Assembly: GCF_003334765.1 (NCBI RefSeq)
Contig: NZ_QOWT01000017.1
Origin: Escherichia coli
GTDB lineage: Bacteria; Pseudomonadota; Gammaproteobacteria; Enterobacterales; Enterobacteriaceae
Length of the DNA: 64,000 nucleotides
Direction: 5' to 3' (one strand)
Position 1 is the stretch's first letter; every line of letters starts with the position of its first letter. Below, one piece after another: positions 1 to 52,787 of this stretch. The notes beneath the pieces were generated by a model, which was given only the letters and a program-made list of their open reading frames with translations, had not been told where the DNA came from and made no database searches. Position numbers and translations under genes: made by a program.

Positions 1-62
1 AGTGGTGGCGCATTATAGGGAGTTATTCCGGCCTGACAAGAGGAAATTTAAAATAATTTTCT
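1..62 (-). promoter_or_regulatory. rrnAp1: rRNA operon P1 promoter (rrnA by synteny with hemG): -35 TTGTCA, 16-bp spacer, -10 TATAAT, GC-rich discriminator, AT-rich UP element; predicted start near position 3, transcribing out of the window
   Basis: Reverse complement of 1-60 reads AAAATTATTTTAAATTTCCTCTTGTCAGGCCGGAATAACTCCCTATAATGCGCCACCACT, which I recognise as the canonical rrn P1 core plus UP element. Confidence 0.8.
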
Positions 63-88
63 GACCGCGCATTTTTTATTCTTTATGC

Positions 89-634
89 TTATTTCAGCGT
101 CGGTTTGTCGGTTAAATGGGCGATTTCTCGGGCGAAATTCGCCACCTGCTCCCAATCGGTATAGACAACTTCTTTGCGCGTATCCGTTTCACCGCCTGAC
201 ATCTTCATAATCAGCTTGATCATAAAACGGTCGTACCAGCGATAACGTGGGTAACGCAGCGCCCCGGCAATGACCGCGCAGCGATCGGGACGCCATTGCG
301 AGTTCATCAGAAACTTGCGCGCGTAGCTGTTGGTCTGTGGAGTACGCTTCTCCGGTTTGCGCGCCACCAGATTCACGGAGTAAAAGGCGCTCGGCATCGA
401 ATTCAGCCGCGTCGCATGTTTTTTGACAAATTCCTGGAACGCTGAATGGTAGTGACCATAGCGAATAGAAGCACCAATGACCACACGGTCATAGTTTTCC
501 CACTGTGGTTCTTCAATGCGGTGCACATTGGCGACATCCGCCTGGATCCCCAGTTCTTTCAGTTCCGAAGCCAGGTAGGAGGCAATCTCGCGCGTTTGTC
601 CGTCCCTTGTTGAGAAAAGAATTAATGTTTTCAC
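89..634 (-). CDS. hemG: Protoporphyrinogen IX dehydrogenase (menaquinone-dependent), flavodoxin-like
   Basis: 181-aa ORF, recognised HemG sequence; immediately downstream of trkH. Confidence 0.93.
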
Positions 635-645
635 GTATTACTCCA

Positions 646-2097
646 TCATTCACGCCAGAAAGTCGGGGTAAAGAGCACCAGCAATGTAAAGACCTCGAGA
701 CGACCAAACAGCATGTTGGCAATCAGGATCCATTTAGCCACCGGGTTCATACTGGTAAAGTTATCAGCAACCACGCCAAGCCCTGGCCCCAGGTTATTCA
801 ATGTCGCAACAACCGACGCAAAGGCAGAAAAGTCATCCACGCCCGTGGCGATAATCGCCAGCATACTGACAATAAACACCAATGCATAGGCGGAGAAAAA
901 TCCCCAAACGGCTTCGAGGATACGTTCCGGCAGTGCGCGATTCCCCAGCTTAATGCTATAGACGGCGTTCGGATGCACCAGTCGTTTCAGCTCACGGTTC
1001 CCCTGCTTAAACAGCAGCAGGATGCGGATCACCTTCAGGCCACCGCCCGTTGACCCGGCGCAACCGCCGATAAAGGCTGAACATAAAAGCAGTACCGGCA
1101 AAAAGAGCGGCCAGCGGGCAATGCTGTCAGTTGTAAACCCGGCGGTTGTCGCCATCGACACCACCTGGAAAAACGCCTGGTTAATTGTCATCAGCGCCGA
1201 ACTGTAGACATTATGAAACCACAGTACGAGGGTACAAATAACCACCAGCGTAAACTGTACGCCGATAAACATGCGAAATTCCGGATCGCGCCAATAAACC
1301 TTCAGACTACGCCCACTTAACAGTGAAAAGTGCAGACCGTAGTTACAGCCGGAGATCAGCAGGAAGATAGCAATGATAGTGTTAATAGTCGGGCTATCGA
1401 AATAACCGATACTGGCATCATGTGTCGAGAAGCCGCCAATAGCGATAGTCGCAAAGCTATGGCCGATGGCATCAAAGGCATCCATTCCGGCAAACCACAA
1501 CGCCAGCGCACAGGCGACGGTCAGCAAGACATAAATCAACCACAGGGTTTTCGCCGTTTCCGCAATTCGCGGGCGCATTTTGTTATCTTTCAGCGGGCCG
1601 GGCATTTCTGCGCGATAGAGCTGCATCCCACCCACGCCGAGGATAGGCAGTATCGCAACCGCCAACACGATGATCCCCATCCCGCCAAACCATTGCAGCA
1701 TCTGGCGATAAAAGAGGATGGCGTGAGGGAGCGAATCCAGCCCCACCAGCGTAGTGGCTCCCGTAGTGGTCAGGCCAGAGAAAGATTCAAAAAACGCATC
1801 GGTAATCGTGAGGTTCGGGCTTTCCGAGAAGATAAAAGGGAGCGCACCGACGCTACCCAGCACGGTCCAGAACAGCACCACTATCAGAAACCCCTCACGG
1901 GATTTAAGTTCGCCTTTCTCTTTGCGGTTCGGCCACCACAGCATAGAGCCAATGGCGAGGGCGACAAAAAAGGTCTGGGTAAAAGCGCGGCCCGCTCCAT
2001 CCCGGTAGATGAGTGCTACCAGCCCAGGGATAATCATGGTCCCTGAAAATAAGATGACCAGTAGTCCAACGATTCGGGTAATGGCGCGAAAATGCAT
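646..2097 (-). CDS. trkH: Trk system potassium uptake protein TrkH
   Basis: 483-aa polytopic membrane ORF, recognised TrkH. Confidence 0.93.
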   Translation of the reverse strand: MHFRAITRIVGLLVILFSGTMIIPGLVALIYRDGAGRAFTQTFFVALAIGSMLWWPNRKEKGELKSREGFLIVVLFWTVLGSVGALPFIFSESPNLTITDAFFESFSGLTTTGATTLVGLDSLPHAILFYRQMLQWFGGMGIIVLAVAILPILGVGGMQLYRAEMPGPLKDNKMRPRIAETAKTLWLIYVLLTVACALALWFAGMDAFDAIGHSFATIAIGGFSTHDASIGYFDSPTINTIIAIFLLISGCNYGLHFSLLSGRSLKVYWRDPEFRMFIGVQFTLVVICTLVLWFHNVYSSALMTINQAFFQVVSMATTAGFTTDSIARWPLFLPVLLLCSAFIGGCAGSTGGGLKVIRILLLFKQGNRELKRLVHPNAVYSIKLGNRALPERILEAVWGFFSAYALVFIVSMLAIIATGVDDFSAFASVVATLNNLGPGLGVVADNFTSMNPVAKWILIANMLFGRLEVFTLLVLFTPTFWRE

Positions 2098-2135
2098 CTC
2101 TGCCGCTTCCTTAGTTCTGCAAAACGAAGTGGGGA

Positions 2136-2750
2136 TTATTCTTCAATCGCTAACAATTGCAATGAACCACGGCTAAAATCCGCCAGCTTTGCGGAAAATT
2201 CAGCCACTTTCGCCGCCGGAAGCGCCACCCGCAGCAGAACGAATGCCTGATAATCACTGTTGATAATTTTGCCGTCACACTGCCCCAGCAACGCTTCAAT
2301 GCCGGTTAACTGATGATATTCACATTGCAAAGTATATTCGGTTAATGGCGTCTTGCGTTGGGTCGTTAGCTGGCGCAGCGCCTGATTCACGCCGCCGCCA
2401 TACGCTTTCACTAACCCACCGGTGCCAAGCAATATGCCGCCGTAGTAGCGCACTACCACAGCGGTAATTTCCCCGACGCCGCTGCCCATTAGCTGGGCGA
2501 GCATCGGTTTACCTGCCGTTCCCGCCGGCTCCCCGTCGTCAGAGAAACCCAGCTGTTGAGAATCATCCGGCGCACCCGCGACCCACGCCACGCAATGGTG
2601 CCGGGCATCGGGGTGTTCTGCCCGCACCGATTCAACAAACGCTTTCGCCGCCTCAACGCCATCGGTATGCGCCAACATCGTTATGAAGCGGCTCTTTTTG
2701 ATCTCTTCAACGACCGTGACCGGTGCCGCAGGAATTAACCAGCTTTCCAT
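2136..2750 (-). CDS. yigZ: IMPACT-family protein YigZ
   Basis: 204 aa from the ATG at 2750 (track start 2753 is a GTG one codon upstream); ATG overlaps pepQ stop by 1 nt (TGATG). Confidence 0.85.
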   Translation of the reverse strand: MESWLIPAAPVTVVEEIKKSRFITMLAHTDGVEAAKAFVESVRAEHPDARHHCVAWVAGAPDDSQQLGFSDDGEPAGTAGKPMLAQLMGSGVGEITAVVVRYYGGILLGTGGLVKAYGGGVNQALRQLTTQRKTPLTEYTLQCEYHQLTGIEALLGQCDGKIINSDYQAFVLLRVALPAAKVAEFSAKLADFSRGSLQLLAIEE

Positions 2751-7639: not shown

Positions 7640-7826
<187 letters not shown>

Positions 7827-13277: not shown

Positions 13278-15520
<2,243 letters not shown>

Positions 15521-48523: not shown

Positions 48524-48730
48524 AAAAAAACGCCTGCTCTTATTACGGAGCAGGCGTTAAAACAGGTCTGTATGACAACAAGTGGGTGCTTCACTCAACG
48601 TTGTGTCCATGGTGTCTGATGAGGCATAAGCGACATCTGTCAGTGGACGATAAGCACCGTAAACGGCTCTGCGTCATTCCGGAGTTTATGAGGCACTAAG
48701 GCGAACATAAGAGATGGAATGAGCATCTAC
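48524..48730 (-). ncRNA. glmZ: GlmZ small regulatory RNA (activator of glmS translation)
   Basis: Minus-strand sequence from 48730 reads GTAGATGCTCATTCCATCTCTTATGTTCGCC... and ends in hairpin AACGCCTGCTC-CGTAATAAG-AGCAGGCGTT plus TTTTTTT; matches GlmZ (207 nt) as I recall it; no ORF. Confidence 0.85.
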
Positions 48731-52350: not shown

Positions 52351-52427
52351 TGGTCGGCGAGAGAGGATTCGAACCTCCGACCCACTGGTCCCAAACCAGT
52401 TGCGCTACCAAGCTGCGCTACTCGCCG
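52351..52427 (-). tRNA. proM: tRNA-Pro (CGG)
   Basis: 77-nt match to tRNA-Pro; reverse complement reads CGGCGAGTAGCGCAGCTTGGTAGCGCAACTGGTTTGGGACCAGTGGGTCGGAGGTTCGAATCCTCTCTCGCCGACCA. Confidence 0.93.
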
Positions 52428-52469
52428 AAATACTGCTTTTTGAATTTTTAGTTCAATTCTTTAAAGTCG

Positions 52470-52556
52470 TGGTGCGAGGGGGGGGACTTGAACCCCCACG
52501 TCCGTAAGGACACTAACACCTGAAGCTAGCGCGTCTACCAATTCCGCCACCTTCGC
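52470..52556 (-). tRNA. leuT: tRNA-Leu (CAG), long variable arm
   Basis: 87-nt tRNA; reverse complement begins GCGAAGGTGGCGGAATTGGTAGACGCGCTAGCTTCAGGTG and ends ...GGGGGTTCAAGTCCCCCCCCTCGCACCA. Confidence 0.93.
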
Positions 52557-52576
52557 ATTGTCACAACTTCTAATAA

Positions 52577-52653
52577 TGGGGTGGCTAATGGGATTCGAAC
52601 CCACGACAACTGGAATCACAATCCAGGGCTCTACCAACTGAGCTATAGCCACC
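52577..52653 (-). tRNA. hisR: tRNA-His (GUG) with extra 5' G(-1)
   Basis: Reverse complement reads GGTGGCTATAGCTCAGTTGGTAGAGCCCTGGATTGTGATTCCAGTTGTCGTGGGTTCGAATCCCATTAGCCACCCCA. Confidence 0.93.
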
Positions 52654-52710
52654 ACTACAAATCTTGTTACGCGGTATTACTACCACCGCAGCTCAAGCGC
52701 CGGGACTAAA

Positions 52711-52787
<77 letters not shown>

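Follow-up and report, generated by a model that had tools for sequence, protein, structure and literature searches.

The minus strand of positions 1-62 is almost certainly the P1 promoter of the Escherichia coli rrnA rRNA operon, as judged from its sequence and that of its flanks. The window (the whole 64,000-nucleotide stretch of DNA analysed here) is cut at +3 of this promoter, with the promoter itself inside and the leader, P2 and the rRNA genes beyond the edge. rrnA P1 is already known, and its recognition here is textbook biology and no discovery. Read from window 62 to window 1, the minus strand is AGAAAATTATTTTAAATTTCCT-C-TTGTCA-GGCCGGAATAACTCCC-TATAAT-GCGCCACC-ACT. We give promoter coordinates such that position -n is window position 3+n; this puts +1 at window 3, the -10 hexamer at -14 to -9 and the start 9 nt past that hexamer, in line with the established rrnB P1 convention. 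The elements of the promoter are:

Window 3..1, minus strand: start region, +1 A, +2 C and +3 T, with +1 set by rrnB P1 numbering and corresponding to NC_000913 position 4,035,239.
Window 11..4 (-8..-1), minus strand: G+C-rich discriminator GCGCCACC, from the sequence.
Window 17..12 (-14..-9), minus strand: -10 hexamer TATAAT, from the sequence and a promoter scan.
Window 18..33, minus strand: 16-bp spacer GGCCGGAATAACTCCC, from the sequence and the promoter scan.
Window 39..34 (-36..-31), minus strand: -35 hexamer TTGTCA, from the sequence and the promoter scan.
Window 62..41 (-59..-38), minus strand: A/T-rich UP element AGAAAATTATTTTAAATTTCCT, identical to the UP regions of K-12 rrnB P1 and rrnC P1.

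The promoter scan, run over window 1-2200, returned six promoter-like matches. The combination of TTGTCA, 16 bp and TATAAT at window 39..12, which agrees with the consensus at 11 of 12 positions, ranked first, and the other five matches were weaker. Upstream of it, the UP element has A or T at 17/17 positions from -57 to -41. A single copy of the composite pattern TTGTCA-N16-TATAATGCGC is present in the 64-kb window, and 100/100 dinucleotide-preserving shuffles have none, which argues that the named elements are not a chance match. A first-pass annotation of this DNA had claimed a P1 core of TTGTCA, 16-bp spacer, TATAAT and discriminator behind an AT-rich UP element. All of these are present on the minus strand at the positions given above, and the UP element (window 41-62) has the same sequence as that of rrnB P1.

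What lies past position 1 identifies the operon. Window 1-2200 is 100% identical to K-12 MG1655 and to many other E. coli genomes, and it was matched in 5,426/5,426 complete E. coli genomes. The gene order in MG1655 is pepQ, yigZ, trkH, hemG, 16S, tRNA-Ile, tRNA-Ala, 23S, 5S and mobB. An rRNA operon thus directly follows position 1, in agreement with the annotated claim of an rrnA promoter downstream of hemG that fires outward. That annotation had also named two checks, a 16S gene beyond position 1 and alignment to the rrnA and rrnB P1 regions. In an Rfam search of the parent locus, a full-length bacterial SSU rRNA (1578 bits) begins 292 nt past the predicted +1 in MG1655, with two tRNAs after it. 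P2 (TTGACT-16-TATTAT) and the leader sit just outside the window, P2 at about +84..+111. As the window itself holds no rRNA sequence, the operon assignment rests on identity with annotated genomes.

For the alignment, all seven K-12 rrn upstream regions were compared with the window in P1 register. The window is identical base for base to rrnA from -160 to +3; with rrnB the identity begins at -68 and with rrnC at -73, in both cases running to +3. rrnG shows 95% identity in the core, and rrnD, rrnE and rrnH are clearly different. Owing to this shared sequence, the 62 bases alone cannot separate three operons, and they could equally be read as P1 of rrnB or rrnC with an identical core and UP element. 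The assignment to rrnA comes from the hemG flank. Upstream of -61 the other operons are only 28-45% identical to the window, and over -160..-61 identity is 100% to rrnA but 29% to rrnB and 42% to rrnC, so that upstream of -73 rrnA is the only match. Moreover, hemG and trkH adjoin the promoter, and the annotated locus has the Ile/Ala tRNA spacer and, downstream, mobB, as expected of rrnA. An rrnB or rrnC identity is refuted by the flanking sequence and is extremely improbable. No evidence contradicting the rrnA P1 identity was found in the analysis.

In K-12, the identity among the rrnA, rrnB and rrnC promoters covers exactly the stretch from about -70 to +3, and the sequences upstream are unrelated. 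To judge from the alignment, this limit at Fis site I looks like the edge of a gene conversion or homogenisation. A 71-nt stretch with a 100% match to the P1 core and UP element also occurs without an annotated feature in a 266-kb E. coli record (NZ_OZ547001.1, 50571-50641), and four matching places in the genome collection are on plasmids. Within E. coli, the K-12-type rrnA P1 is the norm, with 5,181/5,429 records at least 99% identical over 200 nt. This count rules out that the K-12-type P1 at rrnA is a laboratory-strain peculiarity, an idea prompted by a differing spacer in one species-representative genome (L009). The variant, GCTCAGAATAACTCCC in place of GGCCGGAATAACTCCC, is found at rrnA P1 in a minority of E. 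coli/Escherichia (L009, L011).

Conservation across the family was assessed with a HemG scan of species-representative genomes, which gave 80 loci from Enterobacteriaceae species, covering Escherichia, Salmonella, Citrobacter, Enterobacter, Klebsiella/Raoultella, Kosakonia, Lelliottia, Buttiauxella, Cedecea and other genera. From the hemG start codon through P1 +3, all 80 loci align to the window without an indel. TTGTCA stands at the same register in 71 of the 74 loci that reach that far. The -10 hexamer is TATAAT in 54/62 loci and TATACT in 8/62, the discriminator reads GCGCC[A/T]CC in 60/62, and all 62 related loci have ACT at +1..+3. The spacer keeps its length at every locus; its upstream half varies in sequence, and the UP element is A/T-rich and partly conserved across genera. 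Because the upstream spacer half and the bases between the elements vary freely, the conserved blocks point to selection and not to recent ancestry. A TATACT -10 hexamer downstream of hemG is seen at Buttiauxella, Cedecea and Dryocola-type loci (L041, L067, L069, L071, L072, L077, L082, L086, L088). Position -3 (window 6) is A here and in K-12 rrnA, B, C and G; it is T in 53/62 loci of other Enterobacteriaceae and in K-12 rrnD, E and H.

The contig breaks within 1 kb past hemG in 74/80 loci, as is usual where a repeated rrn operon interrupts a draft assembly. Fourteen loci continue as far as 16S, which starts 266-312 nt past +1 in them. Consensus scans are by themselves no proof of function, and with five weaker matches in the same 2.2 kb, P1 might be taken for a promoter-like match that arose by chance and does nothing. 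Such a reading is vanishingly improbable: beyond the absence of the composite pattern from shuffled sequence, hexamers, discriminator and start hardly change between genera in which HemG is about 75% identical and the neighbouring spacer and intergenic positions vary, the distance to the rRNA operon downstream is the canonical one, and rrnA P1 has been used experimentally (PMC4446441). Conservation, downstream operon and experimental use together refute it.

The genes adjoining the promoter, and further RNA matches in the window, are:

Window 89..634, minus strand: hemG (protoporphyrinogen IX dehydrogenase), the ORF directly upstream of P1.
Window 89-91 (-88..-86 relative to P1), minus strand: hemG stop codon.
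Window 646..2097, minus strand: trkH, co-directional and upstream of hemG.
Window 7692-7769, 14915-15166, 48524-48730 and 52354-52787, minus strand: Rfam matches elsewhere in the window, at gathering score.

The Rfam gathering-score matches, all on the minus strand, are naRNA4, Erse sRNA, GlmZ and a cluster of four tRNAs, which is ordinary content for this K-12 region. Between the hemG stop codon and the UP element there is a gap of 25 nt. Across the 80 loci the hemG stop codon falls at five positions, giving an ORF of 528, 531, 540, 543 or 549 nt; the HemG C-terminus drifts while the promoter spacing stays fixed. Fis and the C-terminal domain of the alpha subunit (alpha-CTD) act from defined helical faces. 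The aligned sequences, with their indel-free register, fit a spacing constraint on the upstream activating region.

Set against known rrn P1 promoters, the region shows no difference from E. coli rrnA P1 (rrsA-ileT-alaT-rrlA-rrfA) of NC_000913: the identity over -160..+3 comes with the same flanks and the same operon, and the window merely stops at +3. Its likeness to the textbook model, rrnB P1, covers -35, spacer, -10, discriminator, start and UP element, and the position of the candidate Fis site I at -71 is common to both; upstream of -68, rrnB P1 is unrelated to the window. The P1 promoters of rrnD, rrnE and rrnH share the -10 hexamer, a G+C-rich discriminator and the layout, but they differ in -35, spacer and UP element, have T and not A at -3, and have a different start. 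Promoters of the rrn P1 class have P2 about 120 bp and 16S about 290 nt downstream. Here we find the features of an E. coli-type rrn P1, namely the hexamers with a 16-bp spacer, the discriminator and start distance, the UP element, a candidate Fis site I (at the sequence level) and a downstream rRNA operon with P2, and comparison with the other six operons singles out rrnA.

The way this promoter would work follows established knowledge of rrn P1; we infer its start site, its binding by alpha-CTD and Fis, and its regulation from the literature or from this background. Sigma-70 RNA polymerase would recognise the near-consensus -35 TTGTCA and the consensus -10 TATAAT across a sub-optimal 16-bp spacer. 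The alpha-subunit C-terminal domains are expected to bind the UP element (-38..-59) and strongly raise recruitment, and Fis at about -71 would contact alpha and activate further. The 16-bp spacer, the non-consensus -35, the G+C-rich discriminator and a start 9 nt after the -10 would together make for a short-lived, unstable open complex, whose output would depend on the concentration of the initiating ATP and on ppGpp/DksA. Growth-rate and stringent control would arise from this ATP and ppGpp/DksA sensitivity of the short-lived open complex. Transcription would then leave the window via P2 and the leader into 16S, tRNA-Ile, tRNA-Ala, 23S and 5S. In published work, rrnA P1 was cloned (-383..+80), and DksA/ppGpp effects on its open complexes in vitro were rrnB P1-like (PMC4446441). 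The initiating nucleotides for rrnA P1 in that study were ATP and CTP (PMC4446441), in agreement with A as +1 at window 3 and C as +2 at window 2.

The first-pass annotation had spread the Fis sites across the hemG 3' end (62-150), and this part needs correction. The candidate sites are:

Window 67-81, intergenic: candidate Fis site I GAATAAAAAATGCGC, centred at -71, where rrnB has its site I, and in full agreement with the degenerate consensus.
Window 107..144, in the 3' end of hemG: distal Fis candidates, all weak, with centres at -111, -123 and -134 and one-mismatch or loose matches to the consensus.

Site I is thus intergenic, between the hemG stop codon and the UP element, and a location in the hemG 3' end holds only for the putative distal sites, for which the candidates are weak and poorly conserved. 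The degenerate consensus used, K/G-NN-YR-NN-W-NN-YR-NN-M/C, is said to stem from Finkel and Johnson 1992. As a calibration it was applied to rrnB, where it matches at -71, -102 and -143, the three classical footprinted Fis sites (reportedly those of Ross et al. 1990). Fis sites have reportedly been footprinted at all seven rrn P1 promoters (Hirvonen et al. 2001 is said to be the source). The scan gave 5 matches against 4.3 expected, which is chance level. As the consensus cannot place sites alone, we applied it only together with positional homology to rrnB and cross-species conservation. Among 81 sequences, the G...C ends of candidate site I are kept in 99% and the strict consensus in 75%. 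Its sequence, GAATAAAAAATGCGC in rrnA, differs from GGTTGAATGTTGCGC in rrnB, and rrnA lacks counterparts, at the corresponding positions, of the rrnB matches at -102 and -143. None of the candidates at -111, -123 and -134 is conserved across genera. The sequence TGGCGAATTTCGCCC at window 130-144, within the 3' end of hemG and centred at -134, is nearly a perfect palindrome and a loose match to the Fis consensus; as a distal Fis site it is unsupported, with the consensus kept in 0% of loci in strict and 44% in loose form.

Distal Fis sites within an upstream gene are not peculiar to rrnA. By annotation, the co-directional murI ends at -82 of rrnB P1, without a predicted terminator, as with hemG, which puts rrnB sites II and III inside murI. 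The annotated end of gmhB is at -77 of rrnH P1, and its stop codon (-79..-77) overlaps the position of Fis site I of rrnH.

In a scan for intrinsic terminators, the stretch from the hemG stop codon to P1 contained no hairpin with a T-run of the kind a terminator has, and the RNA of the hemG-P1 junction folds no better than shuffles (z = +0.35). With neither an intrinsic terminator nor a junction structure, nothing predicted halts polymerase coming from trkH-hemG before P1. Transcription from these genes could then have a significant function: it might occlude or modulate rrnA P1, or P1-bound Fis and RNA polymerase might define the 3' end of hemG mRNA, with the hemG 3' coding end also serving as Fis upstream activating region. 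The arrangement of the junction lends this some weight, as candidate Fis site I takes up most of the stop-to-UP gap and the hemG-to-P1 register is kept through the shifts of the stop codon. In addition, insulation of rrn P1 from adjacent transcription by Fis and H-NS is proposed in a 2024 preprint, which cites Fis studies at rrnAP1 and has hemG outside its scope (bioRxiv 10.1101/2024.03.27.586983). Our literature search on trkH, hemG and terminator returned nothing relevant.

Nonetheless, we regard a functional role of the read-through as unlikely. A simple scan for sense-strand intrinsic terminators before P1 found none at murI-rrnB, gmhB-rrnH and clpB-rrnG (L002, L003, L004) either, so rrnA shares the missing terminator with rrn operons in general. 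The Fis candidates in hemG are weak and not conserved, and the consensus matches are at chance level. The last 24 hemG codons do have a lower synonymous-site entropy than the others (0.94 vs 1.15, rank 2 of 158 windows), a point in favour of such a role, but the signal is modest and confounded: amino-acid conservation is lower in the tail, and this narrows the comparison to closer relatives and biases the value. Next to an rrn P1, hemG and trkH have weak expression, from which we infer that any effect on P1 is probably negligible. We are more doubtful still of dual use as such, in which the hemG 3' end and the gap behind it would serve both as coding sequence and as the Fis/UP activating region of rrnA P1, in fixed helical register across Enterobacteriaceae, and hemG/trkH transcripts, lacking a terminator, would either be stopped at the promoter, occupied by Fis and RNA polymerase, or be joined to the rRNA leader.

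Few promoters in biology have been studied as much as the rrn P1 promoters, and for rrnA P1 itself both cloning and assays are on record. The promoter call made from sequence only is confirmed, that is, a real promoter was recognisable from its letters alone, and two embellishments of the call are now bounded. If the dual-use segment were real, 3'-end formation of two transcripts, that of hemG for heme synthesis and that of trkH for potassium uptake, would be tied to the growth-rate state of P1; hemG read-through and dual coding would be of modest interest even then. For the Enterobacteriaceae, the indel-free register in 80 species gives no pointer to a new mechanism; it documents a strong spacing constraint on the rrn upstream region.
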